Below are positions 12,237 through 36,300 of a DNA stretch of 64,000 nucleotides, piece by piece. Under the pieces are notes generated by a model. That model was given only the letters and a program-made list of their open reading frames with translations, did no database searches and was not told the origin of the DNA. The translations under genes and the position numbers were made by a program. The DNA lies in IMG/VR virus record IMGVR_UViG_3300031952_002809, positions 32,001 to 96,000 of that record; one strand, given 5' to 3'. This stretch comes from a virus. Each line of letters begins with the position of its first letter. The first letter of the stretch is position 1.

Positions 12237-12803
12237 TTGAAAAAAAACAATGTAATCTTCCTTGGCATCGATCCAAGCTTGACAGGTACGGGGCTTGTTT
12301 TAATTAATGAAGATTATAGCATCTTAGACATGATTAAACTCTTTACCCCCGCAATGAGGGTAGAGAGACTTTTTCACTTACAAAATAAGCTTCTTGAAGT
12401 ACTGAACAAATATACTACCATACGACAAATATGTGTAGAAGGGCCAGCTTTGCGTGAAACAGGTAAAATATTCGATTTGGGGCAGTGGGCAGGAATACTT
12501 TATCTGGAATTATATAAACACGGATTGACCCCTACTATTGTTGCTCCTATGCAATTAAAGAAATATGTTTCCGGTTTAGGAAAAAACCAGGGAAAGCCAG
12601 TTGTTATGCTTGATGTCTTTAAGAACTTTGGGGAAGAGATTAGAGACAATGACCTTGCAGATGCATATGTTTTAGCACGAATAGCTCATGATTTTTATGG
12701 ATTGTGTAATGAAGCTGAACTACCAAATATAAAAAAGTATCAGCTGGAAGTTCTTAATAAATTGTTTGAAGCCAAGAAAGATAAAAGCGGGACGTTACTA
12801 TGA
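12237..12803 (+). CDS. ruvC: RuvC-like Holliday junction resolvase
   Basis: FLGIDPSLTGTG, ICVEG, PMQLKKYVSG and DNDLADAYVLA motifs. Confidence 0.88.
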   Translation: MKKNNVIFLGIDPSLTGTGLVLINEDYSILDMIKLFTPAMRVERLFHLQNKLLEVLNKYTTIRQICVEGPALRETGKIFDLGQWAGILYLELYKHGLTPTIVAPMQLKKYVSGLGKNQGKPVVMLDVFKNFGEEIRDNDLADAYVLARIAHDFYGLCNEAELPNIKKYQLEVLNKLFEAKKDKSGTLL

Positions 12804-15800
12804 CCAGTTCTACAAAAAATGTGTTTTGTAAGAAATGTAGATTACATGAAGCTGCAAAGCATCCTATGCTTCTTGGAAGGGGGAACCCCTCCGCATCTGT
12901 GTTGCTGTTAGGTGAGGCGCCTGGAAAATCAGAGGATGAGCAAGGACAAGTATTCATAGGTAAGTCAGGCCAACTTCTACAGAACAAAGTAAATCTCGTT
13001 GAACTTGACTGCTTTGTGTCAAATTCAGTGTTGTGCCGTCCATCTGACAAAGCTGGAGGAAATGCTACACCGACAACGACCCAGATAGAGTGTTGCAAAC
13101 CGACAACAATTGATCTTATTCTTACTATGAAACCTCGAGTTGTTGTAGCTCTTGGTGCAATAGCCATGCAGCAATTACTTGATTTTAACCTCAATATGGA
13201 AATTGCTCGAGGCAAGGAATTTTATCATACTGTGTTGGATACGACTATAATACCAACGTATCATCCGGCATATCTTCTTCGAACGAATGATGCTCGATTT
13301 ATGAAAGAATTCACGGATGATCTGGCACTTGCAAAAAGAGTTTCAAACAAGCCCCGCTCTCGTAGAATAGCCTCAGTGCCTGTATCGCATAAGGACAGAT
13401 TTGAAATAGAGAAGTACTTTAATGAACTTAAGCAGTCGGAGTCGCTCTCAGTGGACTTAGAGACAACCTCGCTCAATCCTAAAAAGGGAAGGATAACTGA
13501 CATTTCTTTTTGTAATTCTGCGGGTAAGGGTGTCCATATAGAATGGAAATATCTTACAGAGAGACCTGACCTTTTAAGTTCACTTAAGGAAGTATTGGAA
13601 TCCCCTGCTGAGAAAGTATTTCACAATGCTGACTTTGATATTCGTTTCTTACGCTCAGTTGGGTTCACTGTTCCCGGTAAAATATTTGATACGATGCTTG
13701 CTTATCATACTATGACTATGAGCTATGAGGGGGGAAAGTCGGCATCATTATACAAATTAAAGACAATGGCCTGGTACATGACACAGGAGGGTGGCTATGA
13801 AGATGTCCTTGATGAGCATGGTGGAATTGTTGGAATACAAAAAGAGGACAAGAAAAAAAAGAATGATGTTGAGCAAGGATCGTTGTTTGATTCTGCTGAA
13901 TTAGATACTGTCGCTGGTTTCGATCCAGAGTACAATGCAAGATTAGTATATTGTTCTACATATATTAAAGATACAAAAGAGGCACGGCTCAAAGCACTGG
14001 GACTCGATCGTAAGGCATTTTATTCCGCCATGGACGCCGATGTTACTTTTAGAATCTATAAGTATTTGAAGCAAACTATTGATACATTATATAATTATTC
14101 CTTTTACAATATTACAATGCCTCTGTGTAAGGTTCTTATTAGAATACATGAGAATGGAATTATGGTAGATGTTCCCTACATTGATAAAATGATTGAAGAA
14201 AACAATATTATAGCAGAGTCAGTCAAGACTGACTTTTTCAAAGAAGCTAAATATGAATTTAATCTCAACTCAGTAGATCAGCTACGTGAGTTTATGTATA
14301 CGAAACTAAAACTTCAGGTTAATAATAAATATATTACAACAAAGGGGAAGCGACCTTCTACAGACGAGGAAGCAATTACATTTTTTTCAGAAAAGAAACC
14401 AATCCTAAAAAAGATATTGGAGTATCGTGGTGTTAATAAACAGACATCAACATACTTTGAGGGGTATAAGAAACTTGCGGATGAAATAGGTAGAGTTTAT
14501 CCGAGTTATCTTCAAATAGGAACAGCAACTTCCCGATTATCCGCCCGAGATCCAAACCTTCAAAATATTCCAAAGGACAATCGAGTACGAAATATTATTA
14601 TAGCTTCACCAGGACATAAGATTGTGTTGGCTGACCTTTGCTTGGCTGAGGGAACTTTAATAACAACTCGACGAGGGAATATTCCAATTGAGCAGGTGAC
14701 TACTGACGATTCTGTTAGACAGGAGGATGGCTCCTTTAAGAAAGTAACGAATGTCTTTTTTCGTGGGGTAAAAGAGGTGGTGACACTTACTACAGAATTA
14801 GGATACTCTATAGAGTTAACAAAACATCATAGATTAAGAGTTATCGATGCAGATGGGAATTATGTATGGAAAAGAGTAGGTGAACTTTCTGAATTAGATT
14901 ATGTGGCCATACAACCACACGTAATAAGAAGTAATAAAAGAATAAAATTAAATAGTATTGAATATACTCACTTTAGCAATAAAAAAATAAACAATATTCC
15001 TAAATATATGACTGAAGACTTTTGTGAGTTTTTGGGTTTTATGTGTGGTAATGGGACATTTGGTGTGCCTTACATGGCATTACGTTGGGCTGTTTGCGAT
15101 AAAGATAAAGATACCAATGATTACTTAAAAATACTGTTTAAAAGAATATTTAATGAACGGATAAGAGAATCCACACAATATAGAGGAATATTTGATTCTA
15201 GATTTTGTTCTAAACCGCTAATTAAGTATCTTTTAAATATTGGATTATCTAAAGAAAGGGTTCCTAAATTTTTATTTGAAGCCGATTCTAAATTGATTTG
15301 TGCGTGGCTTAGAGGTTTTTTTGAGTCTGATGGTAGTGTGGGGGATAGAGTATCTTGTTCCTCTTCAAGAAGAACTTTAATAGAGGATATTCAAAAGCTA
15401 CTCTTATCTGTTGGAATAATTTCAAATATATGGCAGTATAAATATGAAAAGCAGGGTAAGCAATTTGAGGCTGATCTTCTTAGTATAAAATCTTATTGGA
15501 CAGATGTTTTTTATAAAAAAATAGGATTCATAGGTAAAAGAAAAAATTCAATCTTAAAAGTATTAGTTGGAAAAACTAAAAAAAACCCAACGTATGGAAG
15601 ACATCCTAATTTAGGAAAAAAATCTAAAAAATATACTTATATAGATGAATTAAAGAATACCCGAAACAGGGGTGGTTTTGTTTCAATAAAAACAGCAAAA
15701 GAATTAAAAATAAAATATCCAGATGTTTATACAGAACTTGGTTTGAATAAGATCACTGATTGGGGGCAGATATATGTTAAATGCAATATAGATGAAAAAA

Positions 15801-16564
15801 TATCGGTTAAAGTTAAGACATATGATATTGAAGTAGAGGAAACTCATTCTTTTATAGCAAATGGTTTTGTTAGCCATAATTCACAGGTCGAGCTACGTAT
15901 TCTGGCAATGATATCTGGTGACACTAATATGATTAATGCCTTTAAATCGGGGCATGACTTTCATACATACACAGCGTGTTCAATGTTTGGTATACCTTTG
16001 GATCAGTTTGATAAGAAAATACCAGAACATGCTAACAAGCGCGATGCGGCAAAAACTATCAACTTCGGAATTGTGTACCAGATGCGGGCAGAGTCTCTCG
16101 CAGAGTCATTAGGTATTTCTTTAGACAAAGCTAAAGCGTTTATGAGGAGTTTTTTTGATGCTTATCCAAGAGTATCAGAATGGGTTACCTACATAAAAGC
16201 ATTTGCTCGGGCGAATGGGTATGTCGAAACTATATATGGGAGAAGAAGGTATTTACCGGATATAAGAAGCAGTGATGATTTTGTTCGGGAGTCTGCCGAG
16301 AGAAGAGCTGTGAACTCACCGATCCAATCGAGCTCGGGGGATGTGTGTTTTACAGGACTTATCCGTTTTCAAGACTGGCTTGATACGAATAATAAGAAAA
16401 CTCGTATCATAGGAACTGTTCACGATAGTATTTTGACAGAAGCTCCTGATGAAGAAGTTGAGGAGATATCTATAATGTTGCCAAAAATAATGACAACAGA
16501 TATTCCTCGAATTACTATCGACATCAAGGCTGACGTTGATATACTCCAGAAATGGAAAAAATAG
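12800..16564 (+). CDS. polA: Family-4 uracil-DNA glycosylase domain fused to family-A DNA polymerase (3'-5' exo + pol), intein-containing
   Basis: UDG motifs CKKCRL, GEAPG, CRP and TYHPA. Exo motifs DLETT, FHNADFD and YSAMDAD. Pol motif A ADL|SQVELR, motif B RDAAKTINFGIVY, motif C TVHDS. Confidence 0.93.
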   Translation: MTSSTKNVFCKKCRLHEAAKHPMLLGRGNPSASVLLLGEAPGKSEDEQGQVFIGKSGQLLQNKVNLVELDCFVSNSVLCRPSDKAGGNATPTTTQIECCKPTTIDLILTMKPRVVVALGAIAMQQLLDFNLNMEIARGKEFYHTVLDTTIIPTYHPAYLLRTNDARFMKEFTDDLALAKRVSNKPRSRRIASVPVSHKDRFEIEKYFNELKQSESLSVDLETTSLNPKKGRITDISFCNSAGKGVHIEWKYLTERPDLLSSLKEVLESPAEKVFHNADFDIRFLRSVGFTVPGKIFDTMLAYHTMTMSYEGGKSASLYKLKTMAWYMTQEGGYEDVLDEHGGIVGIQKEDKKKKNDVEQGSLFDSAELDTVAGFDPEYNARLVYCSTYIKDTKEARLKALGLDRKAFYSAMDADVTFRIYKYLKQTIDTLYNYSFYNITMPLCKVLIRIHENGIMVDVPYIDKMIEENNIIAESVKTDFFKEAKYEFNLNSVDQLREFMYTKLKLQVNNKYITTKGKRPSTDEEAITFFSEKKPILKKILEYRGVNKQTSTYFEGYKKLADEIGRVYPSYLQIGTATSRLSARDPNLQNIPKDNRVRNIIIASPGHKIVLADLCLAEGTLITTRRGNIPIEQVTTDDSVRQEDGSFKKVTNVFFRGVKEVVTLTTELGYSIELTKHHRLRVIDADGNYVWKRVGELSELDYVAIQPHVIRSNKRIKLNSIEYTHFSNKKINNIPKYMTEDFCEFLGFMCGNGTFGVPYMALRWAVCDKDKDTNDYLKILFKRIFNERIRESTQYRGIFDSRFCSKPLIKYLLNIGLSKERVPKFLFEADSKLICAWLRGFFESDGSVGDRVSCSSSRRTLIEDIQKLLLSVGIISNIWQYKYEKQGKQFEADLLSIKSYWTDVFYKKIGFIGKRKNSILKVLVGKTKKNPTYGRHPNLGKKSKKYTYIDELKNTRNRGGFVSIKTAKELKIKYPDVYTELGLNKITDWGQIYVKCNIDEKISVKVKTYDIEVEETHSFIANGFVSHNSQVELRILAMISGDTNMINAFKSGHDFHTYTACSMFGIPLDQFDKKIPEHANKRDAAKTINFGIVYQMRAESLAESLGISLDKAKAFMRSFFDAYPRVSEWVTYIKAFARANGYVETIYGRRRYLPDIRSSDDFVRESAERRAVNSPIQSSSGDVCFTGLIRFQDWLDTNNKKTRIIGTVHDSILTEAPDEEVEEISIMLPKIMTTDIPRITIDIKADVDILQKWKK
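14639..15880 (+). mobile_element. Intein (414 aa) with LAGLIDADG endonuclease in PolA motif A
   Basis: CLAEGT...FVSHN|S splice junctions; FLGFMCGNG and WLRGFFESDG blocks. Confidence 0.93.
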
Positions 16565-16581
16565 TTTGGAGGTTGGGGACC

Positions 16582-16941
16582 ATGCTATCAATATTGATTT
16601 ATGTTATTATTTTCTCGGTTCTTGCAGGAATAACTTATTTGTATTACAGAGAGATAAAAAAACCTCTGCGTGATAAAATAGAGGTTGGGACTGTTCTAGG
16701 TATTTTATTTCTCGTTGGTTTATTAACAGCAATAAATATCTATGTATATAAACCGCCTTTGCAAAAAATAAGAAAGGATGCCGGAGGAGATCCATTTGAA
16801 TCAGTTGAGAGAATTATTGTGGATAAAGTTCCTGATGATAGAACACAGATTACAATTGTTTCTGCTGTGGCTGATTCATCGTATACGGTTATCATATCAA
16901 AAGAAGATGCCAAACGACTAAGGGCAGCTTTAAAGGAATAG
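16582..16941 (+). CDS. Membrane protein (2 TM)
   Basis: Two hydrophobic helices; ATG at 16582 after GGAGG/GGGG is the preferred start. Confidence 0.6.
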   Translation: MLSILIYVIIFSVLAGITYLYYREIKKPLRDKIEVGTVLGILFLVGLLTAINIYVYKPPLQKIRKDAGGDPFESVERIIVDKVPDDRTQITIVSAVADSSYTVIISKEDAKRLRAALKE

Positions 16942-16950
16942 AGTAATATT

Positions 16951-17208
16951 ATGCCTTTTGAGATAAAATTAACATTGTTTCAAATAATACTCTGCTGGCT
17001 CGCTTTGGGGTTCGTCGGATCATTAGTTTTATTGTTTGAGAAGTGGTATTCAGAAAAAGTTGTAACAGCGAGTGATGTAGTGATAGCTAGTATGTCTATG
17101 ATCTTTGGGATAATATTACTTGGATTATCAGTTATAGCTCTTTTCTTAAAATTTTTATCAAAGGGAGATCCTATTATTATACACGGTAAAAAAGAGATAG
17201 AGGAATAA
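16951..17208 (+). CDS. Small membrane protein (2 TM)
   Basis: Two long hydrophobic stretches. Confidence 0.6.
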   Translation: MPFEIKLTLFQIILCWLALGFVGSLVLLFEKWYSEKVVTASDVVIASMSMIFGIILLGLSVIALFLKFLSKGDPIIIHGKKEIEE

Positions 17209-17232
17209 TTTATAGTATGGGGGAAAGATATA

Positions 17233-17448
17233 ATGTGCCTACTGATCGGATTTGCAGTTCTCTGTGTAATATTTTTTATATTTCAGCATTGGTCAGTGTT
17301 ACCAACACCACATTTACACGATTGGAGTTTGTACGAGTCTGAAGTAGAAATACATAAGAATAAACAATATTCTTATACAATCAAAAAATGTACTGTGTGT
17401 GGTACTACGTCAATGGAAATAAATAGTCAACAGTATAAAGTGAGTTAG
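17233..17448 (+). CDS. Small membrane-anchored protein with HxHxW...CxxC Zn motif
   Basis: N-terminal TM segment, then HLHDW...KCTVCG. Confidence 0.55.
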   Translation: MCLLIGFAVLCVIFFIFQHWSVLPTPHLHDWSLYESEVEIHKNKQYSYTIKKCTVCGTTSMEINSQQYKVS

Positions 17449-18543: not shown

Positions 18544-20751
18544 ATGGATCTTCCTGATATCGTGAATGAGATAAATAAAAAGAAAAAGACTACTAAAATA
18601 ACAACATTAGATTTAGCTAAATCTTTCAGATTGAAGAGATTTTTTTCAGGATCATTTGGTACGGACTATATTACGGGTGGTGGGTTTGCTTACCGTAGAA
18701 TACAACTATTGTTTGGTGCAAAAAGCTGTATCGATGGGGATTCTTTTTTATGGTATGAGATTTGGAAAAACAATAAGAGGGCTAACAGTAAGGGCGGTAC
18801 TATACGAAATTTGTATAAAAGATTTACTGATGTAACCAAGACAGGTAGAAAACCTATGAGTAACGACTTGGCTACATACTATGTAAAATCAGTTGATGAT
18901 GAAGGATATGTAGTTAGGAATGAGATACTAAATGTGGTAAAAACAGGCAAGAAGAAATGTTTTGAGGTTTCTGTTTCTTCAGGAGAACAGCTTACGTCTA
19001 CAATGGAGCATAAATATTTAACTCCATCTGGATATAAAGAATTAAAGGATTTGAAAGTTGGAGATATTGTTTATGTGAATAGAAATAACAGAGTTAAAGG
19101 CAGGAAAAAGCATACTTCTCGACCAGCTATTTGTGTTAAATATCATCCTTATTTTCCTGTAAAGATAGTTAAGGATAAATATAAAGGGGTTGAAAAAGAT
19201 TACCCCTACTATAGAGGTCAGCAATCAAGAATAGTATATGAAGCGTGCTTAAATGACATGACGTATGATCAATATGTTTCTATACTCAATACTGCATCAA
19301 AGGAAGAAATCAATAAATTAAAATTCTTACCTGTAGATATACATGTTCACCATAAAGATGAAAATTTTTTAAATAATGATATATCAAACCTTGAGCTTAT
19401 TGATCCATCAGAGCATGGGAAATTGCATATGTTGGATAGGCTAAAGAATCTAATGATCATTGTAGATGAGGCTACGATACTGTCGATAGAGCCTGTTGGT
19501 GAAAGGGAAACTTTTGATATTCAATGCGCGTATCCATATAATAACTACATTGCAAATGGAATTGTTGTTCATAATTCAGGTAAGAATGCTTTGCTTAATC
19601 AAACTACAGCATACTTGCAAAGACAATGCAGGTGTTGTCACGGCGTTCACCCTGATTTCTTTAGTGGAGCTCAAGCAAAAGATCAATGGGCATTTATTTT
19701 GCACAGTGTTATGGGTTATGGAATTTGCAAATGTGAGGCACCTCAGCCAAAAAAAGTATTCATTCTTGATTTTGAACGCGCCCTGGCAATCGAAGAGACT
19801 CGCTCTATAAAGATATTGAATATTACCAACAATATAACCGGTGATGATATAGATGAGCTTGATTATAATGATGCTATTGCAACTATGGCTGAATTGCAGG
19901 TATCATCTATTCTTACACCTGAACAAAAAATAGAAATCAAAAAATGTGAAGATTTTATAAAGAATTGTTCTATCAAAGAACAAACTATAAATCAGATAGC
20001 CATAACCGATTATCTTAAAAAATGTGGTGTTGATATAAACCAACTTCTTGTTGCAGATCCTGAAGATACTGAAGAAGGTATTGAGCTTGTTCGAGATATG
20101 ATCCGTGCGAAAGAAGTGGATGCTATTATTTGGGATTCCCTTCAGGCAGCAATACCACGCTATGTAAAAGACCGTGCTGCTGATCAAGCAACAATGGGCG
20201 TTGAGGCTAAGCAAAATGGTTTGCTCATGCGGCATGTTTGTAGTGCTTTCGCTGCTGCAAATCTTTTAGATGAGAGTGAGGCGTATAAGCCAGCATTATT
20301 CATAACAAGTCAGGTTCGTGCTAGTTTGGGTGGGTTTGTTTCTACACCTGATACGTATTCTGGTGGTAACGCTATTCAACACCACATCTCATTAGCTCTT
20401 GAAGTTAAGCGTGAGAAGTTTCTCAAAGAAGACGGAACTGATGCTGAGTTCAAAGATGATTTTTATGGTCAAAGAGTGCGCCTTCGTGCTGATAAAAATA
20501 AACTGAGTTCTCCTGGAGATATGTATGAGTATGAATATTTCTTTAGAGAGGGAGAAAATTTCCCTGTAGGTATTGATTCAGTTGGCGAACTTATCAATCT
20601 TGGTGTAAAGGTTGGATTAATAGATAGAGCTGGTCCATACTACTCAGTAGGAGATAAGAAATTTCAAGGAATGAAAGCGCTGAAGGATGCTTTTAGAGGT
20701 GATAGTAAATTCGCTCAGGAAATTTATATACAATTAATACAGAAGTTATGA
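18544..20751 (+). CDS. recA: RecA recombinase with intein and extra insertions
   Basis: SGSFGTDYITGGG, Walker A GAKS|SGK, DFERAL, GVD, IIWDS, TSQVR, SGGNAIQH, KNK and GLIDRAGPYY motifs. Confidence 0.9.
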   Translation: MDLPDIVNEINKKKKTTKITTLDLAKSFRLKRFFSGSFGTDYITGGGFAYRRIQLLFGAKSCIDGDSFLWYEIWKNNKRANSKGGTIRNLYKRFTDVTKTGRKPMSNDLATYYVKSVDDEGYVVRNEILNVVKTGKKKCFEVSVSSGEQLTSTMEHKYLTPSGYKELKDLKVGDIVYVNRNNRVKGRKKHTSRPAICVKYHPYFPVKIVKDKYKGVEKDYPYYRGQQSRIVYEACLNDMTYDQYVSILNTASKEEINKLKFLPVDIHVHHKDENFLNNDISNLELIDPSEHGKLHMLDRLKNLMIIVDEATILSIEPVGERETFDIQCAYPYNNYIANGIVVHNSGKNALLNQTTAYLQRQCRCCHGVHPDFFSGAQAKDQWAFILHSVMGYGICKCEAPQPKKVFILDFERALAIEETRSIKILNITNNITGDDIDELDYNDAIATMAELQVSSILTPEQKIEIKKCEDFIKNCSIKEQTINQIAITDYLKKCGVDINQLLVADPEDTEEGIELVRDMIRAKEVDAIIWDSLQAAIPRYVKDRAADQATMGVEAKQNGLLMRHVCSAFAAANLLDESEAYKPALFITSQVRASLGGFVSTPDTYSGGNAIQHHISLALEVKREKFLKEDGTDAEFKDDFYGQRVRLRADKNKLSSPGDMYEYEYFFREGENFPVGIDSVGELINLGVKVGLIDRAGPYYSVGDKKFQGMKALKDAFRGDSKFAQEIYIQLIQKL
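18727..19575 (+). mobile_element. Intein (283 aa) with HNH endonuclease in the RecA P-loop
   Basis: CIDGDS...VVHN|S junctions; HVHHKDENFLNNDISNL...EHGKLH. Confidence 0.92.
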
Positions 20752-21248
20752 AAAAGATAAAGTTCTCACGAAAACGGGAAAATGATATAGCTGATGACAC
20801 TGGAGGGAAGAGACACGCTCGTAGTGGTGGATTGTGGTGGAAGAAGGGTGATGCTAGTACTGTAGATTTTCTATTTGAGGATAAATTTACAGAGAAGGAA
20901 CATTATTCTGTAACAGCATTAGTACTTCAGAAGATTGAAAAGGAAGCAATGACTATAGGAAAACTTCCTATTTTTCGTATAGGATTCATTTCAAGATATG
21001 GCAATGCTGACTACGCTATTCTTCGATTCAAAGATTGCAAGATTGATCCTATTGAATATACGAAAATACCTCTAGAGATATCAAAGAATAAAAGCATACG
21101 TCTATCTTCTGATAGATTGCGGGGATTGCAGATTACAGGAGATAAATTTGTAATGCGTTTTTGGCTCATTGAAAAGGAATATATAATCATGAATTGGTAT
21201 TTTTTTGTTTCGATAAAGCATAAAATAATAGTAGGAGAACAATTATGA
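20748..21248 (+). CDS. PD-(D/E)XK nuclease, phage Holliday-junction-resolvase-like
   Basis: RENDIA...SGG...KGD...LFEDK motif directly after recA. Confidence 0.7.
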   Translation: MKKIKFSRKRENDIADDTGGKRHARSGGLWWKKGDASTVDFLFEDKFTEKEHYSVTALVLQKIEKEAMTIGKLPIFRIGFISRYGNADYAILRFKDCKIDPIEYTKIPLEISKNKSIRLSSDRLRGLQITGDKFVMRFWLIEKEYIIMNWYFFVSIKHKIIVGEQL

Positions 21249-21946
21249 GTCGTTGTCTGGTATGTCATGGGAGTGGGTGGGCCATACGCTATAATGAAAA
21301 GAATAAACAAGATGAATCAGAGCCTTGTGAATGTCGTCGTGAACGGGATGAAAGAGATGCTTTTCGAACTAAATTGGTTAAAGCGTGCATACCTCCAGAA
21401 TATTGGGAGTATACATTGGAGAATTATTTAACTTTGCCTCTTGGGGACTCTATTGTAAATAAGGCGAATGCTCTCAGTGTTTACGAATTGAGAAAATATA
21501 TGACTGATCCATTACTATTTTTAAATAGCTACAATGTATTGTGGATATGGGGAAGAAAACCAAATGCTGGTCATACTTCTCTTGCAGTAATATTTGCTGT
21601 AGAACTATTGAAAAACAAATATAAAGTTCGTTTCATGCGCATGCAAGATTTAGTATCAGCGTTTACGGATTTCGAATCTAAAAAAGATTTCTTTACGTAT
21701 CTTGAAAAATTTGATGTATACTTACTTGATGATGCATTTGATGCGAATAGGTGTATTGTACCAGGAGATTATACAAATATTCATTTATTTAATTGGATGA
21801 GCGCTGCTATGTCAAACAAGAAGCATTTTATTTGTACATCGAAAGTAGATATAGTGCAGATAAGCGATAAGTTTGAACAATCGAAGCATCTTCTATTGAA
21901 GTCAAGGCTATCCTTGGAATTTCATGGGACGTTAAAGAGAGACTAA
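21245..21946 (+). CDS. DnaC/IstB-like helicase loader with atypical P-loop
   Basis: N-terminal CxxC..G.G...CEC zinc motif, ACIPPEY, LWIWGRKPNAGHTSLA and Walker B YLLDD. Confidence 0.75.
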   Translation: MSRCLVCHGSGWAIRYNEKNKQDESEPCECRRERDERDAFRTKLVKACIPPEYWEYTLENYLTLPLGDSIVNKANALSVYELRKYMTDPLLFLNSYNVLWIWGRKPNAGHTSLAVIFAVELLKNKYKVRFMRMQDLVSAFTDFESKKDFFTYLEKFDVYLLDDAFDANRCIVPGDYTNIHLFNWMSAAMSNKKHFICTSKVDIVQISDKFEQSKHLLLKSRLSLEFHGTLKRD

Positions 21947-21948
21947 TA

Positions 21949-22164
21949 ATGGCGAAGTTACTTACATATAAATGTGCTGGCATTGAATTTGATTTTTACG
22001 ATACAGAAAGAGTTCCGGTTATCAAGTCAGACGTAAAATATTTTATGACACCGGGGCGGCTGAAGGAAGTGTGCGAATGGATGAAGATTCGTACTGTTAC
22101 TTCAGTGACTACTTCTGATCACATGGAAGAATTGATTGCTATAGGATTACTTGGGGAATACTAA
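21949..22164 (+). CDS. Hypothetical protein
   Basis: 71 aa ORF coupled to the primase gene. Confidence 0.55.
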   Translation: MAKLLTYKCAGIEFDFYDTERVPVIKSDVKYFMTPGRLKEVCEWMKIRTVTSVTTSDHMEELIAIGLLGEY

Positions 22165-23105
22165 TGATCGATGTCGAAAAGATTCTGACTACCCTGGGTA
22201 TTGAATATCGTGGGGGCGGGACAAACAATTTTAAAATATTTTGCATAAATCCTGCACACCAGGAAAAGAAACCATCGATGTATATACATAAAGACAATGG
22301 TCAAATACATTGTTTTGGGTGTAATTATACTGGTTCTTTGTTTACTCTTCTTCGAGTAAGCAAAGGTGTTTATGGATTAGAAGCATTACTCTACCTTCAA
22401 AAGTTTGCTGTCGGTGGTCAGACTGAGAGTGAGGTACGAAAATCTTTGGAGGAGATAATACAATCACGCTCAGCTGAAAAATCCATTATTCGATACGCGT
22501 CTGTCGAGTTACCTGAGCATAGACTGCTTACAAACCATTTGTATCTCGATAAGCGCGGTATTACTTCTGCTGAGATACAAAATTGGGGAATGGCTGTTAT
22601 TACTGGTGGAAGAAACATTGGTTGGATTCTAATTCCCATCTACCAAGATGGTATCCTTCGAAATTATTTTATGCGAAATAGTTTTGGAGAAGGAAAATTG
22701 TATGGAAACTATCCAAGAAAAGACTTGTTGGCGGGATTAGATTATGCTTTAGACCTATCTCAGCCACTTTATATTTCTGAGGGTATTTTTGATTCTCTTG
22801 CTATTGGACGTACGGGTGTTCAATCAGTCGCTTGCCTGTCAAATAGACTATTACCCGAACAACTCGAGCGGTTAAAGCTATACAAAAAAATAGTTATTGT
22901 TCCTGATACCGACTCACGAGGCATCGATCTCGTTGAGAGTGCTGGCCCACTTATACATAATAGAGAAGTCGTTGTTTGTAAATTACCATCACATAAGAAG
23001 GATGCTGCAGAGTGTACCCATACTGAAGTAAAGCAGGCTTTACTTGAAGAAATACCATGGAATATCTATATGATTGAGAAGAAAATTATTTCAAAATTTA
23101 ATTGA
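22164..23105 (+). CDS. dnaG: DnaG-type primase (CHC2 zinc finger + Toprim)
   Basis: CINPAHQEKKPS...HCFGC, YLDKRGI, ISEGIFD, PDTDSRG and KKDA motifs. Confidence 0.88.
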   Translation: MIDVEKILTTLGIEYRGGGTNNFKIFCINPAHQEKKPSMYIHKDNGQIHCFGCNYTGSLFTLLRVSKGVYGLEALLYLQKFAVGGQTESEVRKSLEEIIQSRSAEKSIIRYASVELPEHRLLTNHLYLDKRGITSAEIQNWGMAVITGGRNIGWILIPIYQDGILRNYFMRNSFGEGKLYGNYPRKDLLAGLDYALDLSQPLYISEGIFDSLAIGRTGVQSVACLSNRLLPEQLERLKLYKKIVIVPDTDSRGIDLVESAGPLIHNREVVVCKLPSHKKDAAECTHTEVKQALLEEIPWNIYMIEKKIISKFN

Positions 23106-23549: not shown

Positions 23550-23966
23550 ATGAATGTTACTATAGATATCAACAAGATAGGTGAGAGTATAAGTAGTTTA
23601 ATTAAAAAAAAATTGAAAACTAAGAATCTACCTGAATGTCTTGGAAATATGGCACCACCTGTTACAAGAACTACACTTACTATAGAAGATACTATTTTTA
23701 AAATAAGACACAGCATTCCAAAGGAAAATGTTGTGGCGGATGATGTAAGAAGTATTGTGGTATATCAAAAATATGATACAGATCTTATGTATGATAAATT
23801 TGTTTTGGATATTAACGGAAAGAGCGTTATCGAGGCAATAAAAGAAGAAGCGGCAACTTCCTATGTTGATCACGTTAGCGCATGTGCTCTATGCAAACAT
23901 GTTGATGTGTGTGATAAACTTACCACTCACTATTTGCAAACCATTAAATTATTGGAGGATAAATAA
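23550..23966 (+). CDS. Hypothetical protein with C-terminal Cys cluster
   Basis: CALCKHVDVC; translationally coupled to the tubulin gene. Confidence 0.65.
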   Translation: MNVTIDINKIGESISSLIKKKLKTKNLPECLGNMAPPVTRTTLTIEDTIFKIRHSIPKENVVADDVRSIVVYQKYDTDLMYDKFVLDINGKSVIEAIKEEAATSYVDHVSACALCKHVDVCDKLTTHYLQTIKLLEDK

Positions 23967-25045
23967 TGTTAGAAATGTTTAACATAATTGCATTAGGACA
24001 ATGCGGCTGTCGTATTGCAAAAGAGTTTAACAGAATTGGATTTAAAGCATGCTATATAAATTCTGATGCTGTTGATATGAGGGACTTTAACGTTCCTTCA
24101 GATAAAATACTTATGTTAGGCACTACTGGTAGCGGTAGGAGTCCTCATAAAGGAAGACAAATACTCGAAAAAAGTTTCGATAAATTTGCAAAATTTATGG
24201 ATGCTAATATCGATAAAGACAATATGAATGTATTCATAATTGGTCTTGGTGGAGGCACTGGCGGGGGTATGATTCTTCCTGCTATCGAATATGCAAAAAG
24301 TAAAGATGTGAAGGTTGGTGTTATTGCAACACTTCCTCCAAAAATGGCAGGCATGCTTGATATGGACAATGCTATGCGTGGCCTTAAAGAATTAAAGAAT
24401 CTTACTTTAAATATGTTTATTCTTGCTGATAACGATTATCTAATAGAGAAAGTTGGTCTGAGTACTGATTGGTGGCAGAAGATTAATTATCATATTCTCA
24501 CAAAAGTTGCAACTGCGTTTGATTTACTCAGAGAAAATAAATCTAGTCAGAGTGGTGTAGGTTCAATTGATAAAGGTGAGCTTGCCCGTATACTCCAGTA
24601 TGGAAAAGGTCTTCTTGATATCAGAGATGTATATTTCAATCTTCCTGAAGATTTATCTCTTCCTGATGATGAAATTAAAAAGAAATTATTTGAACCTGCC
24701 TTGGTTTCTGGTTATACATATAAGGATACACTGTTCTACCTTATTAGCGTGGATACACCCAAAAAATCTGGGTATACCGAGTTTGCTTCAAAGATATTTA
24801 ATATTACAAAGAATACATATGGTAGTTCTTTGGCCAGGGTGGGAATGTTTAATGATCCTGTATTGGATAGAGTCCTTCGTGTTACTATGATATCAGCAGG
24901 ACTTAAACTTCCAAAAGTTCTGCGATCTAAGATAAATAATCTCAAACGGGATTCTGACAGGCATGAAGTTAAGAAAAACAAAGAAGAGAGTACTGACTTT
25001 TCACCCATGAATGATATAAAGATAGATGATGACTTTGATATTTAA
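23966..25045 (+). CDS. Tubulin/FtsZ-family GTPase (TubZ/PhuZ-like)
   Basis: T1 IALGQCGCRIA, INSD, GSGRSP, signature GLGGGTGGG, ADN and T7-like IDKGE; acidic C-terminal tail IKIDDDFDI. Confidence 0.9.
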   Translation: MLEMFNIIALGQCGCRIAKEFNRIGFKACYINSDAVDMRDFNVPSDKILMLGTTGSGRSPHKGRQILEKSFDKFAKFMDANIDKDNMNVFIIGLGGGTGGGMILPAIEYAKSKDVKVGVIATLPPKMAGMLDMDNAMRGLKELKNLTLNMFILADNDYLIEKVGLSTDWWQKINYHILTKVATAFDLLRENKSSQSGVGSIDKGELARILQYGKGLLDIRDVYFNLPEDLSLPDDEIKKKLFEPALVSGYTYKDTLFYLISVDTPKKSGYTEFASKIFNITKNTYGSSLARVGMFNDPVLDRVLRVTMISAGLKLPKVLRSKINNLKRDSDRHEVKKNKEESTDFSPMNDIKIDDDFDI

Positions 25046-25279
25046 ATGACAAAACAGAAACATATATACGTAAAAGACGAGACTGAGTTTGATGAACTAC
25101 AAACAGAGATAAAGATTCTCTGGTATCAGAAATATGGAGAGTCTTTATCAAATTCTGCTATACTCGTCAAAGCATATGAGAATTTAAGAGATAGCTTATC
25201 TGGCAGGGGCGACAGAACAGCATATGATATTAAGAGACAAAATATATATAAATACTGCAGAACTGGGATACAAGATTAG
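25046..25279 (+). CDS. Small RHH-like protein, candidate tubulin adaptor
   Basis: KQKHIYV strand, helix, then GESLSNSAILVKAY helix; ATG immediately after the tubulin stop codon. Confidence 0.55.
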   Translation: MTKQKHIYVKDETEFDELQTEIKILWYQKYGESLSNSAILVKAYENLRDSLSGRGDRTAYDIKRQNIYKYCRTGIQD

Positions 25280-28483: not shown

Positions 28484-28685
28484 ACATATACATGTTGCAA
28501 TACCAGAGCATGTGTATTTTCATTTTAAACATAAATGTTCTTTTTTTGAATTGTCTCGCTCGGATGTTTTAGTAACATTGATTGAGAAATTTATTGATGG
28601 CGATTTTGATACAGATTTCGGCTTAGAGGTGTTTTTACATGCGGGACATCGGGATACTGACGCATCCAATAGACAAAGAAAATGA
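28470..28685 (+). CDS. RHH-like DNA-binding protein
   Basis: KHIHVAIPEHVYFHFKHKC....LSRSDVLVTLIEKFI. Confidence 0.65.
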   Translation: MDSIKHIHVAIPEHVYFHFKHKCSFFELSRSDVLVTLIEKFIDGDFDTDFGLEVFLHAGHRDTDASNRQRK

Positions 28686-30111
28686 ATGTCTTGTTATTGC
28701 CAATGCTTTAAAAAATGCTGAAAACAGGGAAATCTTTGTTCGAAGAGTTGCGTATAATCTATTCAGACTAAAGGAATACCAAACACTCGCCTGGGGAATT
28801 CTTGAAGTAAGCAAATCTGGAATAGAATTTAATCCTGACGCAGTTCGACTTAAATCACAGGCATGCCCAGTTCGCTATACGGTTGATCTTCCATTTATTC
28901 AGAATCTGATAACTAACTATCCTGATATTCCTGTATCAAACTTCATCGAACATGTTGAAAAGCTGACTGTTGACAGTGTTAAGCAAAGCATGATCGATTA
29001 CATGACAACAACTATATTTCCTGCATGCACCAATCCAACAATAACTTTGGCTGAATTAGATCAAAGATTTCTATATGGTAAAACTATTATTGAGCGAGGC
29101 TACTCATCTTCAAAGATGGGATTTAAAACACTTTCTGAGGTTGCTGCAGAATACGATATAATGAAAGCTACCGGTACAAGTAAGCGTCCAACCGGATTTA
29201 TCCAACTCGATCGTTATCTTACTGAAGGATTTAAAGATGGTCAAATAACTACTGTCGCAGCCCTCGCATCTCACGGAAAATCTAGTTTATGTCTCTCCAT
29301 GATGAAGAATCTTAGTCAATTGGAACAACCTGTTCCTGTAGCACAATTTGCTTTGGAGATGAATAACACATCTCTATTCACAAAACTTCTTGCATTTCGA
29401 ACACATTTACCTATATCTACTATTGTAAAAAAACCGGAAGATTTATCCTCTGACGAATTAAGTATATATGAGCATGAAAAGCAACAGCTCGCATTGAACA
29501 GGCATATTTTTTTGAATGATAAGCCTTCTCAAAATATAGCCAGCGTTCGAGAACAGATTCTTCTATTACAGGATCATATTAAACAACAATATATGGTTGT
29601 TGTTATAGATCTTTTTGGTAAACTCAGCGACCTGCAATCAAGTGATAATTTTGCTCGAGATTATGAAAAGAAATTAAATGAGATTCAAGTTATGGTGAGA
29701 GAGCTTGGTGTACACATGATTCTTGTTGCACAGCTTAATAGAGAGGTTGGAAAGAAGAACAGACGACCTACTATGAATGATCTTAAAAACTCCCATGCTC
29801 TTACTGAAGTGAGTGATATAATATTTGGGATACATCGTCCTTATTATGATCCAGAAAAAACATTCAAACAATATCTTACCTATGGCATGCCTCAAGATAC
29901 AGACGATGAATATGAAGATGATAGTAAGATAATAGAGACAGATCCTAACCAGAACGTTGCTGAGGTTATTATTCTTAAACAACGAATGGGTCCAAAGGAT
30001 GTTCTCATAAATTTTACATTTGATCCTGTAACTACTTGTTTTTCTCCTGTTACTGAAATGTACCAGCAACAACTAAATATTCGTAAAATTGAAGAAGAAG
30101 ACGAAGAATAG
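28639..30111 (+). CDS. dnaB: DnaB-like replicative helicase
   Basis: PTGFIQLD, ASHGKS, FALEM, VVIDL, AQLNR, RPTMNDLK and KQRMG motifs. Confidence 0.92.
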   Translation: MRDIGILTHPIDKENECLVIANALKNAENREIFVRRVAYNLFRLKEYQTLAWGILEVSKSGIEFNPDAVRLKSQACPVRYTVDLPFIQNLITNYPDIPVSNFIEHVEKLTVDSVKQSMIDYMTTTIFPACTNPTITLAELDQRFLYGKTIIERGYSSSKMGFKTLSEVAAEYDIMKATGTSKRPTGFIQLDRYLTEGFKDGQITTVAALASHGKSSLCLSMMKNLSQLEQPVPVAQFALEMNNTSLFTKLLAFRTHLPISTIVKKPEDLSSDELSIYEHEKQQLALNRHIFLNDKPSQNIASVREQILLLQDHIKQQYMVVVIDLFGKLSDLQSSDNFARDYEKKLNEIQVMVRELGVHMILVAQLNREVGKKNRRPTMNDLKNSHALTEVSDIIFGIHRPYYDPEKTFKQYLTYGMPQDTDDEYEDDSKIIETDPNQNVAEVIILKQRMGPKDVLINFTFDPVTTCFSPVTEMYQQQLNIRKIEEEDEE

Positions 30112-33322: not shown

Positions 33323-36300
33323 ATGGCACTAATTGATCGAGCATTTGATGTACTGAATGGAATATCCCTCGGTGATACGGTAGGGATATTCTATTCGGAT
33401 GCGTCACCTAATACAAGTGGTTTAGATTCCCCTGAGGGGTCTATTGCTTTGCAAGTACCTCCTTCAGGAGAACCTCAGCTTTGGAAAAAGTTTGGATCAA
33501 GTTCTACAGCATGGAAAAAACTTCAAACTAAGACGTACACATCTACGGGAATTCCTACTACGAACAATGACGGTGTAGACACGGCTGGTATTGGTATTAC
33601 TTTTGAACCAGGTGATCTTTGGATAAATACCGATACCAGTACGGGTTTTTATGTTTGTTTTCAGAATACGACCGGTTCTGCTCTTTGGGGTCAGGCTGGC
33701 GGGGCTGCTAGCTTTGAGTCAAGCACAGCTAATATTAAGATGGATGGGACTGCTTCAGTTGGTGAACTGAACACAGTTCCAAGAGCCGATCACGTCCACC
33801 CTTCAGATACTTCAAAGCAGAATGCACACGCTATTGGAAATCTTACTACTTCAACTGGCTTACTTGTTTCTGGGGGAACCGGGGCGGTTATAGGAAGTGG
33901 AACAGTCTTATCTCTTCCACAACTACTTGGTCCTAGTGATTCTCCTACTTTTGTTGATGTAACTCTTTCAAGCATGCACAGAACTGTAAGTGCTCTTGGA
34001 ACTGATACTAAAATGGCAACAGGTGTTCCTTTTGGAGAAAGAGGAAAGTTTAAAGTTGCCTTTACATACAGCGCTCCAAACATTGTAGCTACCATTTCCT
34101 TTGTTGGAGCAAATACATCGTTTTCGTATTATATCAGTGGAAAGAAATTTACAGTAACCTCAACCGGACTTTCTGCATACACAAAATCAGCAACGGCAGC
34201 AGAAGGAACATGGTACTTTTATATAAACCAATCAACGACTGATGTTAATGCTCCCGACGTGTCTTTGTCTCAGATTCCCTGGACTATCTACGATCCAGAT
34301 GTTCTTTTATGGAATGCATACTACAACGCAACTGCTACTGATATAACCTGGGTTGGTGAAGAGCGTCATACCGCCGGTAGAGATATTTATAATCATGCAA
34401 GAAATCATGCTCAAGGTGCTATATATAAATCTGGATTGCTGTTTAGTCAATACAATGGGCTAACCGCTTTCTCATCAAATACTGACAACAATTTTGGAAG
34501 AGCGCAGGCTATAGTGAGCAGTGGCTCATTCTATGATGAAGACATCCAAAATACTATATCGCATACAGATGCTTCAATTACTTCCACTACTAGCTCACCC
34601 GCAACGGGTTGGAATTTAACAGTAAATCAATTTCTTGGATTCACTGCATTGGCTACCACTGGAACCAATGCAACAACGATAGTATTTACAACAACTCGAA
34701 CACTGGCTACCGGTCAAGCTGTTACAGTTATGACAGGAAATACAACGACTGTTCGTGGAACAACTACGATAACAACAGGTGGAACGAGTACATCGTTTAC
34801 TGTATCCTCAGTAACTGGATTAGCATCAGGTGACGCTATCGTAATTGGAGCACGAATTCCTATTTATTATATATCTGCCGTTGCTGGTGGAGTTTATACC
34901 TGGAGAAAGCTTACATCAACTGATTTTCTTGGTGTATCCGGTGGAGTGGCAATAACTGCTGCTACTATTGCGTCAGCAACATGTCAGTACAATAATGCTA
35001 CTGCTGGTGGCTTTGCAACAATAACTGCAAATAGATATTATCCAATGTATCTAATTGCAACGAATATGACTAGTGAACCTGTTATTGCTGTACTTGGGCA
35101 GGGACAATCAACAAATGCAACTCTAGCTACGGCGCTAGGAGAGGCTCCATTTCAATTTGCAAACGTAGCAGGATTATCTGGGTTAGGTATACAAGAAGCC
35201 GTACCATTTTATCGATTAACATATCATTACAATACGGGTGGGGCTTTTACCAATACTCGCATAAAAGTAGTTGATGTTACTTTTCTTAATTTACGTGTAT
35301 CAACTGTGTCTGGAACTGTTATAGGTTCTTCTCCGTCTACAATGGCAGCATCTCAGGTTACAACAGATACTACTAATTTCAGTAATGTACTTTCAACAAG
35401 TGATACCACTGTTCAGAACGCACTTGATACTATTGATGATCACGTTCACAATACGTATTGGGGCGGTACAGATTCAGGAAGCACAAACGCTTTTGTTGTT
35501 ACTCCTTCTCCAGCGGCTACAGCATATACTGCAGGAATGGTTGTTCGATTCAAAGCCAACTCAACAAATACCGGAGCAAGTACAATAAACGTAAATGCTC
35601 TTGGTACCAAAACAATAAAGAAAAATGGACTGAGTGATCTTGTCAGCAATGATATTGTTTCAGGTCAGATAGTAACATTAGTATATGATGGAACATATTT
35701 TCAACTTCAGGTTGTTGAAGGAATAGTTTCGTACGCTCTTGTATCTGATGCAGAAGCAGCAACTGGATTTGGAAACAATCTGTGCTATGTAGTTGCTACT
35801 GATACTTTATATCGATATATCGCTGCTGGTTCAGCATATACCGACGATAACAAATATGTTTTAAGCACAGGTTCTGGTGGAAACACAAGATGGGTTGGTG
35901 TTGCTGGTAGATATATTTATACGTCAACGAATGTATTCTATGGATTTGAATCTTCATTCTCCACAAGTTCTGGAATGTACAATACATCTTTTGGAACGAA
36001 TAGTCTATACACTAATTCGGCTGGTGGAGCAAACGTTGCTGTTGGGCATAATGCTTTATATTCTTCTAATGCCGACTCAAATACAGCTGTAGGCAAAAGC
36101 GCTGGTTCTTCTACTACAGGCGGATACAATACTTATATTGGAAATAGTAGTGGTACTAATGCCACGTCAGGGACAGGCAACACAGCGGTAGGCTTTTCAG
36201 CTTATTCTGGTGCAAGCGGACCAACATATGCAACAGGTTCCAGCAACGTTGCAATCGGCTACCAGGCGGCGCAAGCGGCATCGTCCGTTGCTAATAGCGT

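Follow-up and report, generated by a model that had tools for sequence, protein, structure and literature searches.

Organization of the polymerase locus

The window, a 64,000-nt stretch comprising positions 32,001 to 96,000 of the IMG/VR virus record IMGVR_UViG_3300031952_002809, contains a series of replication genes on one strand (Table 1). The product of the intein-split polA gene combines three domains identified by Pfam: a UDG domain, a 3′–5′ exonuclease domain (PF01612, E 7.4e-21) and a family-A polymerase domain (DNA_pol_A, PF00476, E 4.3e-99). This is the UDG–PolA architecture named in the original prediction, which had been made from the sequence alone. The UDG domain contains the sequences GEAPG and HPAYLLR, which we take to be its catalytic motifs, and PF03167 is found in 30 of 32 polymerases of the clade. 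The exonuclease motifs Exo I (DLETT, residues 219–223), Exo II (HNADFD, 275–280) and Exo III (YSAMDAD, 408–414) are intact: D219, E221, D280, Y408 and D412 are invariant or nearly so among 26 aligned sequences. The intein interrupts polymerase motif A (DL/C...HN/SQVELR), and relatives without an intein exist (830–870 aa). No member of the DnaE/PolC or PolB families was found in five records, two of them complete, which argues that the polA product is the replicase.

A nucleotide search with polA gave no match among 50,697 phage records. At the protein level, identity to any of 1152 matching phage records is 23–29%; of the relatives with a name, the SPO1 group (~23–26% identity) is among the closest. 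Judged by sequence, the polA clade is a separate uncultured lineage, without close kinship to the SPO1-group polymerases. Its members came from alignment-based scans of viral contigs; single-protein scans of viral contigs with the PolA N-terminus or with P0025 returned no relatives.

Table 1. Features of the replication region, with positions in the window
Feature	Position	Strand	Basis
polA: UDG, 3′–5′ exonuclease and family-A DNA polymerase, 1254 aa, intein-split	12800..16564	+	Pfam
Family-4 UDG domain, residues 26–175	12875..13324	+	PF03167, E 4.8e-25
Proofreading exonuclease core, Exo I to Exo II to Exo III	13454..14041	+	PF01612 and motif positions
Charged flexible linker QKEDKKKKNDVEQGSLFDSAE, residues 347–367	13838..13900	+	Translation, alignment
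QGSLF, candidate beta-clamp-binding motif, residues 359–363, then acidic DSAE	13874..13888	+	Column conservation
Intein with LAGLIDADG homing-endonuclease domain, residues 614–1027	14639..15880	+	Pfam
Three small ORFs (129, 85 and 71 aa) between polA and dnaN	16552..17448	+	
dnaN-like gene, three-domain beta sliding-clamp homologue, 360 aa	17451..18533	+	Profile, AF2, Foldseek, PHROG
recA with HNH intein	18544..20751	+	Pfam
DnaC-like helicase loader, weak match	21245..21946	+	PHROG 50, E 2.9e-9
DnaG-type primase, zinc ribbon and Toprim	22164..23105	+	PHROG 47, E 2.7e-36
DnaB-type replicative helicase	28639..30111	+	PF03796, E 1.1e-38

A conserved QxxLF island in a disordered exonuclease loop

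The linker carrying QGSLF is placed between Exo II and Exo III, and both its coordinates and the surrounding exonuclease motifs agree with the site originally proposed. The flexibility ascribed to this charged insert is borne out by the AF2 model of an intein-free relative that is 78% identical (P0006; mean pLDDT 89.8). The only segment of that model with pLDDT below 50 is the equivalent one, residues 356–365, with coil extending to residue 369, and it overlaps the QGSLF of this relative (residues 364–368).

QL[SD]LF is one form of the beta-clamp-binding consensus. QGSLF fits the pentapeptide version, QxxLF, as quoted in passages of PMC12926913. Shuffling the sequence of this polymerase yields a strict Q..LF in 12.6% of cases, so a lone match means little; the island is more than chance because it is conserved in relatives. 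Across 32 related polymerases it reads Q-x-[ST]-L-F-D-acidic, embedded in a linker that varies in both sequence and length (from a few residues to ~130). Gln is present in 22 of the 32 sequences and Leu in 26 (plus three Ile and one Val), while the Phe column holds 23 Phe, three Tyr, one Trp, two Leu and one Ile; the following D364 is kept in 17. In the flanking columns 349–358, the top residue occurs in at most 11 of 32 sequences. The Leu and Phe are retained even among sequences that are only 43–57% identical overall.

We also considered a PCNA-type PIP box. Its consensus has an aromatic pair at +7/+8, which is missing from the peptide, and this assignment was rejected.

The downstream gene encodes a beta-clamp homologue

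The original prediction placed a DnaN-like gene ~0.9 kb downstream of polA. The gene starts 886 nt past the polA stop, and its product is a genuine beta-clamp homologue. On its own the sequence is a weak match (PF02768, 24.1 bits, under the Pfam cut-off of 27). In contrast, a clamp-family profile built from 34 sequences aligns with positions 1–357 of the 363 of 1vpk_A in the PDB (E 1.5e-45), and all 55 PDB matches at E ≤0.01 are beta clamps. The AF2 model (pLDDT 92.5, pTM 0.86) has the E. coli beta clamp 3pwe_A as its top Foldseek match (E 6.7e-28, TM 0.84), and PHROG 947, 'processivity factor', is matched with E 3.9e-28. The best-kept blocks of the family are F-V-A-T-D at 166–170, which reads L-V-A-T-N in the clamp of the window, and F-P-x-Y at 234–237; T169, F234, P235 and Y237 are kept in 30–33 of 34 sequences. 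In an alignment with a bacterial clamp, these blocks correspond to VATDGHRLA and FPDY, and they presumably line the peptide cleft. A tblastn search of the clamp against 50,697 phage records gave no match, and a scan with a reduced clamp alignment (A4) found a single locus (L122), with no polymerase within reach.

None of the three small ORFs between polA and dnaN has a Pfam or PHROG match above threshold. The 85-aa ORF has a sub-threshold match to PF06837 (18.9 bits against a Pfam cut-off of 27). All three are conserved at 48–66% identity in L084, a relative lacking dnaN. In relatives without dnaN, recA follows polA directly or after small ORFs.

The bacterial-type DnaB, DnaC and DnaG that had been predicted are all present by Pfam and PHROG, with a weak match for the DnaC-like protein, whose Pfam matches to IstB and nSTAND3 are weak as well. 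The original prediction had found no clamp loader in the window, and the wider search agrees: none was detected in the window, in the whole 121,553-bp record (~49% complete) or in complete relatives. PF13177 and PF06144 had no match in the source record, nor in any relative searched, the complete, dnaN-containing genome G005 among them. The AAA+ matches that might have represented a loader proved to be HerA-like, MoxR-like, PIF1-like or generic AAA proteins; among the latter, a 332-aa protein of G005 could conceivably still be a clamp loader.

Co-occurrence of island and clamp gene among relatives

To relate island and clamp gene, we tabulated 22 distinct clade loci with readable context. Duplicates were dropped (L008, L009, L113 and L114, equal to L014; L094 to L002; L090 to L089; L101 to L016; L105 to L093; L103 to L012; L097 to L004; L116 to L108; L083 and L086 to P0006), as were loci with less than 1.7 kb downstream (L088, L091, L099, L102, L106, L109). 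L104, in which the clamp is present and the polA N-terminus absent, and loci outside the clade (below ~37% identity) were left out of the context count. For L084, L092, L095, L098 and L100, 'dnaN-minus' denotes absence from the syntenic slot and from 8–10 kb downstream.

In 12 of the 22 loci, which represent every one of the three PolA subclades, dnaN directly follows polA, often overlapping it. All 12 keep the island. Gln is absent from three relatives with dnaN (IDPLF, CNSLF, SVEMF), and another reads QDYVI. Conversely, all three island-less loci are devoid of dnaN. They include G001, a complete genome of 252,876 bp without a clamp anywhere, and L004, which is sister to the QGNLF-bearing, dnaN-containing L108 (SH-aLRT 96). 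The remaining seven of the ten distinct dnaN-minus loci nonetheless retain the motif, as KDTLF (L084), QGQLF (L092), QGTLF (L095), QMELF (L100), QGQLW (L093 and L016) or QGLLW (L098), and in each of them recA follows polA and the dnaN slot is empty. L084 is collinear gene for gene and 71% identical; the whole 77-kb record of L016 contains no clamp. Of the dnaN-minus records, only the motif-less G001 is complete; the others are fragments with 14–65% completeness.

The PolA tree calls for at least four changes in the presence of dnaN, which indicates that the gene is expendable. Four phylogenetically independent pairs differ in dnaN; the motif shifts in the same direction in two and is unchanged in two (p 0.5), a paired sign test that has no power at four pairs and requires at least six informative ones. 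The expectation that QxxLF would be conserved only together with dnaN fails in part: in these loci the motif is kept wherever the clamp gene is present and missing only where it is absent, but most dnaN-minus loci keep it too. Since seven of them do so, the motif does not depend on a phage-encoded clamp only, and docking on the host clamp has to be reckoned with. What stands of the predicted link is a conserved motif and a widespread adjacency of polA and dnaN; tethering specific to the phage ring does not follow, and the host clamp may be a partner.

Predicted complex of clamp and peptide

The complex model proposed for checking the interaction was run with two copies of the phage clamp and the motif peptide, with the peptide alone being scored. 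It reached 0.60, compared to 0.00 for the best of three controls, including one in which the clamp was swapped for an unrelated 367-residue protein (0.00). The runs share at least 55% of contacts, and partner pLDDT is at least 52. Of 80 solved complexes, 58 attain the pass mark of this score, as do 2 of 110 mismatched pairs, but scores of 0.60 or lower came from only 7 of the 80 solved complexes and from both passing mismatches. The separation from the controls therefore gives weak support to docking, at a level where the passing mismatches fall. As clamp–peptide complexes have already been solved, a pass may also reflect likeness only.

Comparison with known polymerases

Family-A polymerases are usually viewed as clamp-independent, and the thioredoxin of T7 is the textbook route to processivity. 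In T7 gp5, a flexible thioredoxin-binding insertion recruits a separate processivity factor. That insertion lies in the thumb, and its partner is host thioredoxin rather than a ring, whereas the phage enzyme studied here has an insertion in the exonuclease domain and a candidate beta-type ring as partner. The thioredoxin-binding loop of gp5 is also discussed in passages of PMC10201439. In domain layout, the enzyme resembles the PolAs of SPO1- and SP15-like phages, where an N-terminal family-4 UDG is fused to exonuclease and polymerase domains (PMC13697223, PMC10201439). As far as the same passages go, processivity of those polymerases is credited to DNA-gripping insertions or to the UDG domain, not to a clamp, and SPO1-like phages are reported without such partners (PMC13697223, PMC10201439).

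The closest parallels for the peptide are cellular. Streptomyces coelicolor PolA2, of the Actinobacteria PolA2 or APEX polymerases (NAR 2026), has a QSSLF clamp-binding motif (PMC12926913). Like the phage enzyme, it is a family-A polymerase with QxxLF in an unstructured loop of the 3′–5′ exonuclease domain, the two loops being likened by description, and its evidence too comes from sequence analysis and structure modelling in the passages concerned (PMC12926913). PolA2 differs in being cellular and probably low-fidelity, with a dead exonuclease and the cell's own clamp (PMC12926913). The phage polymerase, in contrast, has intact exonuclease motifs and a fused UDG, is the sole polymerase of its phage and is encoded near an adjoining phage clamp gene. 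For Mycobacterium tuberculosis Pol I, clamp binding by 457-QLSLLDD-463 has been demonstrated with cryo-EM, a crystal structure and mutants (bioRxiv 10.64898/2026.09.19.751633). By description, this motif is likewise internal rather than C-terminal, close to the exonuclease domain and followed by acidic residues. However, it lies between a vestigial exonuclease domain and the palm, occurs in Mycobacteriales only, ends in Leu-Leu and serves the cell's own clamp, according to that study.

Among phages, Ma-LMM01 and RSL1 encode homologues of PolA, polIII-beta and polIII-gamma, and their clamp was proposed to serve PolA (Kazlauskas and Venclovas 2011, PMC3201878). Accordingly, the hybrid replisome of the original prediction stands as an idea that was already in print (PMC3201878). 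Like the phage described here, these are large phages with a family-A polymerase and a bacterial-type clamp (PMC3201878). They differ in carrying a clamp-loader subunit and, in the passages of PMC3201878 concerned, in having no docking motif mapped on the polymerase; for our phage the searches gave no loader, and a candidate peptide for docking can be placed on the polymerase. Full-text searches of the literature turned up no paper that reports a clamp-binding motif in a phage family-A polymerase.

A proposed docking peptide on a phage replicase

The reading we favour, with some confidence, is that the QGSLF-type island docks the sole polymerase of the phage on a bacterial-type sliding clamp, making it a processive replicase. 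QGSLF and its acidic tail would constitute a short linear beta-clamp-binding motif displayed on the disordered loop of the proofreading exonuclease domain, and the Leu-Phe pair would enter the hydrophobic cleft between clamp domains II and III. The partner would be the DnaN of the phage itself, whose gene belongs to one string with polA; in relatives without dnaN, the host clamp is probably a partner too. Tethered in this way, an enzyme of the Pol I type could act as a processive replicase alongside the phage DnaB, DnaC-like and DnaG proteins. Loading of the ring presumably falls to the host DnaX complex, as the searches revealed no loader encoded by the phage. A docking-type peptide on the only polymerase, together with a clamp gene just downstream, suggests that the phage probably copies its genome riding on the clamp.

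This extends known ideas and is not a new principle: a 2011 proposal based on gene content already paired PolA with a phage beta clamp, and clamp motifs in cellular family-A polymerases came only in 2026. What the clade would add is a candidate docking peptide, mapped and conserved, in a phage replicase that can apparently proofread, a clamp gene in one string with the polymerase gene, and naturally occurring relatives from which the clamp, the peptide or both have gone. It thereby lends itself to comparative and biochemical work on how a Pol I-type enzyme can become a replicase, and on whether a host loader can load a phage clamp.

Alternative explanations

The motif might instead dock on the host beta clamp in all these phages. 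The phage DnaN would then be a dispensable accessory with some other role: it could divert or soak up the partners of the host clamp, offer a platform to transcription or repair factors, or serve as a back-up ring. The seven motif-bearing loci without syntenic dnaN, among them the collinear L084, and the repeated changes of state of dnaN fit this explanation, and the missing phage loader means that host machinery is needed anyway; phage Mu is reported to use the host clamp for other purposes (PMC12867686). However, all three motif losses fall in dnaN-minus lineages, whereas losses unrelated to dnaN would be expected if only the host clamp mattered. The direct succession of polA and dnaN in 12 distinct loci, often with overlap, also speaks against it, and the incompleteness of every dnaN-minus record save G001 makes a clamp gene elsewhere possible. 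We therefore regard exclusive use of the host clamp as unlikely, if well worth considering. A related and similarly doubtful idea is that the loop peptide is a dual-use handle, with which the polymerases of these jumbo phages ride either host or phage clamp. In this case, dnaN would be a dispensable extra, lost several times over, that makes the replisome independent of the host clamp supply, for example when this is limiting, and lineages without clamp and peptide would have become clamp-free. If true, the clade would be a natural series of a Pol I-type replicase gaining and losing clamp dependence.

Docking on the phage clamp, as we favour, also has to be weighed against readings without any clamp. 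Leu-Phe followed by acidic residues resembles the acidic, aromatic-ended tails of single-strand-binding proteins. The island might thus dock another partner, for instance SSB, helicase, primase or RecA, or mimic an acidic-aromatic tail that folds onto the polymerase's own DNA-binding groove. The absence of Gln from 10 of 32 sequences and the persistence of the motif without an adjacent dnaN would be in line with this. On the other hand, Gln stands at the clamp-consensus spacing in the other 22, losses of the motif go along with an absent dnaN, and the clamp model outscores the one with the unrelated 367-residue protein, a weakly supportive result given its calibration. In addition, the exonuclease-loop motif of bacterial PolA2 has been modelled in the clamp pocket (PMC12926913). 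Taken together, a different partner appears improbable. It is more improbable still, and very much so, that the island has no binding function and persists through common descent or because it caps a helix where the spacer ends. The chance rate of one Q..LF in this protein and a clade possibly young enough for leftover shared sequence would allow it, but the neighbouring linker columns have fully diverged and the linker ranges from a few to ~130 residues, yet the Leu and Phe persist at low overall identity.

A conserved motif in the polymerase linker

The acidic residues of the exonuclease motifs and the Exo III tyrosine of the window polymerase are invariant or nearly so across relatives (Table). 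QGSLF lies where the original prediction placed it, in the linker between Exo II and Exo III. By itself, the match is no more than chance: shuffling this polymerase yields a strict Q..LF in 12.6% of cases, and across the record's 135 ORFs the looser Q..L[FWY] is counted 8 times, compared with 9.7 ± 3.3 after shuffling. Among these ORFs, the strict form is confined to the polymerase. The case for the motif is made by conservation across relatives.

Thirty-two proteins (P0003-P0034, 43-100% identity) came out of a word-indexed search as one clade; beyond them, identity drops sharply to 32% and lower, mostly in bacterial Pol I. In the 32-sequence alignment, the linker that follows a conserved G-G-I-V-G-x-Q is anywhere between a few and ~130 residues long, and one island is the only sequence in common. 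There, column Q359 is Q in 22/32, L362 is L in 26 (plus 3 I and 1 V), F363 is F in 23 (plus 3 Y, 1 W, 2 L and 1 I) and D364 is D in 17; in the ten preceding columns, the top residue reaches at most 11/32. The island is absent from three short-linker sequences (P0027, P0032, P0033) and ambiguous in two with long linkers (P0031, P0034). In the AlphaFold model of P0006, a 78%-identical, intein-free relative (mean pLDDT 89.8), pLDDT falls below 50 only at 356-365, and coil continues to 369; QGSLF occupies residues 364-368. With a drifting linker around it and low pLDDT in P0006, the island is a conserved short linear motif borne by a disordered loop. Clamp-binding motifs usually sit on such loops.

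Table. Features of the polymerase, its neighbourhood and the replication module
Feature	Position	Strand	Remarks
polA, UDG/3'-5' exo/family-A polymerase, 1254 aa	12800-16564	+	ORF, Pfam
Family-4 UDG domain	polA residues 26-175		Pfam
GEAPG; HPAYLLR	12911-12925; 13262-13282		in UDG domain
3'-5' exonuclease domain	13454-14041 (Exo I through III)		Pfam
Exo I DLETT; Exo II HNADFD; Exo III YSAMDAD	residues 219-223; 275-280; 408-414
Linker QKEDKKKKNDVEQGSLFDSAE	residues 347-367		QGSLF at 13874-13888
Family-A polymerase domain			Pfam E 4.3e-99
polA intein with LAGLIDADG endonuclease	residues 614-1027, 14639-15880		splits polymerase domain in motif A
Three small ORFs (129, 85, 71 aa)	16552-17448		between polA and dnaN
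dnaN-like gene, 360 aa	17451-18533		next sizeable gene after polA; 886 nt and the small ORFs between
recA, intein with HNH domain	18544-20751
Tubulin/FtsZ-family GTPase	23966-25045		PF00091 E 1.8e-13; inside replication module
SNF2/ResIII helicase, LAGLIDADG intein	25224-27680
DnaB helicase; DnaG-type primase	window
DnaC-like loader	window		weak match
RNR, dUTPase, RuvC, resolvase	window
Three very large ORFs (2057, 1745, 1366 aa)	33323-39496; 42407-47644; 50308-54408		downstream of replication module
HerA-like ATPase	G000:C1:100358-101611	-	source record, outside window; PF05872 E 1.8e-155

The downstream gene encodes a beta clamp

As a single sequence, the dnaN-like product scores below the Pfam cut-off (PF02768, 24.1 bits), matches the PDB by phmmer at E 1e-4 and matches PHROG 947 ('DNA polymerase processivity factor') at E 3.9e-28. 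Among 1.84 billion representative proteins, 119 relatives were identified. A profile of 34 of them matched 55 distinct PDB sequences full-length, all beta sliding clamps (best 1vpk_A, E 1.5e-45). The AlphaFold model (pLDDT 92.5, pTM 0.86) has E. coli beta clamps as its top Foldseek matches (TM 0.84, E 6.7e-28). The DnaN-like gene noticed near polA is thus a genuine beta sliding clamp homologue. The best-kept blocks of the phage family, F-V-A-T-D (166-170) and F-P-x-Y (234-237), are matched by VATDGHRLA and FPDY in a bacterial clamp, segments that we take to line the peptide-binding cleft; the window's own clamp reads L-V-A-T-N at 166-170. The three small ORFs preceding the clamp gene have no family match above threshold, and they are kept at 48-66% identity in locus L084 though dnaN is absent there.

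For the tethering envisaged in the original prediction, we modelled two clamp copies (full clamp alignment, A2) with polymerase residues 338-385 (linker alignment, A3). The score was 0.60 (runs 0.60, 0.60, 0.59) versus 0.00 for the best of three controls, with at least 55% contact agreement and partner pLDDT of at least 52. The mark reached here is also reached by 58/80 solved complexes and 2/110 mismatched pairs, but only 7 of those 80, together with both passing mismatches, scored 0.60 or less. The model weakly supports binding; since many clamp-peptide complexes have already been solved, the pass may only reflect likeness to these.

Motif and clamp gene across relatives

Scanning viral and metagenome contigs with alignments gave 80 + 38 loci, at which all ORFs were compared with a clamp HMM and the polymerase linker was read. 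Once duplicates, non-clade loci and those with too short a downstream stretch had been removed, 22 distinct polymerases with readable context were left. In 12 (the window, L096, L087, L085, L089, L002, L007, L005, L108, L014, L111, L117), dnaN directly follows polA, often overlapping its stop codon, and all 12 retain the hydrophobic pair. Q stands at consensus spacing in nine (five QGSLF, plus QHALF, QGVLF, QLSLY and QGNLF; QDYVI in L111 is degenerate), and three have no Q (IDPLF, CNSLF, SVEMF).

Ten of the 22 loci lack dnaN. Three of these, L003, L004 and L012, are also without the island, and seven keep the motif: L084 (KDTLF), L092 (QGQLF), L095 (QGTLF), L093 and L016 (both QGQLW), L098 (QGLLW) and L100 (QMELF). 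In these seven, recA comes next after polA and the dnaN slot is empty; in L084, recA follows the three small ORFs, and each gene of the locus lines up with its counterpart in the window (48-92% protein identity). Comparing L084:13263-14865 with the window, dnaN is cleanly missing between the homologue of the 71-aa ORF and recA. Close, collinear relatives are polymorphic for the presence of dnaN. Nothing in the complete 252,876-bp genome of L003, which has terminal repeats, matches the clamp profile, and the complete 236,368-bp genome of L014 contains the clamp. The other dnaN-minus records are fragments, for which absence refers to the slot and nearby DNA, so a clamp gene may lie elsewhere in those genomes.

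On a quick IQ-TREE PolA tree (25 rows), dnaN-bearing loci occur in all three subclades and the dnaN state changes at least four times. L004, lacking both features, is sister to L108, which has both (SH-aLRT 96), and six of the seven motif-bearing dnaN-minus loci form one clade. In a paired test of only four independent pairs, the motif shifts with dnaN in two, against it in none and is unchanged in two (p 0.5), numbers too small to give the test power.

On balance, we favour a mechanism in which the loop peptide would dock the polymerase on a beta-type ring and raise its processivity. Phages with dnaN would use a ring of their own, and those lacking the gene probably that of the host. The original interpretation is partly supported: the observation, the clamp and the conservation of the motif stand, but its exclusive link to dnaN does not. 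No clamp occurs without the motif and each motif loss is in a locus without a clamp, yet the motif outlives the clamp gene in seven loci. That survival would also suit the main rival, a host clamp acting as the real partner everywhere with the phage clamp doing something else, a rather unlikely reading to be set beside the lack of any clamp without the motif. A different partner for the loop peptide is less probable still. That the peptide has no function would fit the chance-level match in the window, but is very improbable given the conserved island.

Comparison with known systems

Phages Ma-LMM01 and RSL1 encode PolA with polIII-beta and gamma homologues, and the clamp was proposed to serve PolA (Kazlauskas and Venclovas 2011, PMC3201878); in the available text of that report the motif on PolA is unmapped, whereas here a candidate, QGSLF, is located. 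A 2026 survey with AlphaFold models (PMC12926913) reports a QxxLF motif on an unstructured loop within the inactive exonuclease domain of actinobacterial PolA2 and calls it the first such motif in a bacterial family-A polymerase. M. tuberculosis Pol I was found experimentally to bind the clamp via QLSLLDD between its exonuclease and polymerase domains (2026 preprint, 10.64898/2026.09.19.751633). For UDG-fused phage PolAs, processivity is ascribed, in the accessible passages, to insertions or the UDG domain rather than a clamp (PMC13697223, PMC10201439). Searches of the literature turned up no account of a clamp motif on the family-A polymerase of any phage. What is added here to these systems is a putative exo-loop clamp handle on a proofreading, UDG-fused phage replicase whose operon includes an expendable beta clamp but no loader.

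Among bacterial Pol I sequences (P0035-P0122), 26/88 carry Q..LF (for example QLDLF, QLSLF, QMSLF and QGSLF) near residues 297-324, or at 209 in one shorter protein, a region that is apparently the linker joining the 5'-nuclease and exonuclease domains. This is a possible clamp handle outside Mycobacteriales, in contrast to what the survey in 10.64898/2026.09.19.751633 reports.

The replication module

The source record spans 121,553 bp (CheckV completeness ~49%; the window is its bases 32001-96000). Neither DnaE/PolC (PF07733) nor PolB (PF00136) is found in it or in any of four relatives, of which two are complete, which makes UDG-PolA the phage replicase. Clamp-loader families (PF13177, PF06144) were found neither in this partial record nor in the relatives searched, which extends the earlier observation of no loader in the window. 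Since no phage loader family was found, the phage clamp, if used, would presumably be opened by the host loader. AAA+ matches were HerA-like, MoxR-like, PIF1-like or generic and were rejected as clamp loaders, less firmly so for a generic 332-aa protein of one complete relative; in the source record, the HerA-like ATPase is the sole AAA-type match from the clamp-loader search.

The UDG domain retains GEAPG and HPAYLLR, with C79 and C99 invariant and C10 and C13 nearly so. We take the two motifs to be catalytic and the cysteines to be Fe-S ligands, as in family-4 UDGs; with them retained, glycosylase activity like that of SPO1-like enzymes is possible. PolA, recA and the SNF2/ResIII helicase contain one intein each; intein-free polA versions of 830-870 aa occur among relatives. 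The tubulin/FtsZ-family GTPase is kept at 53-92% identity in relatives.
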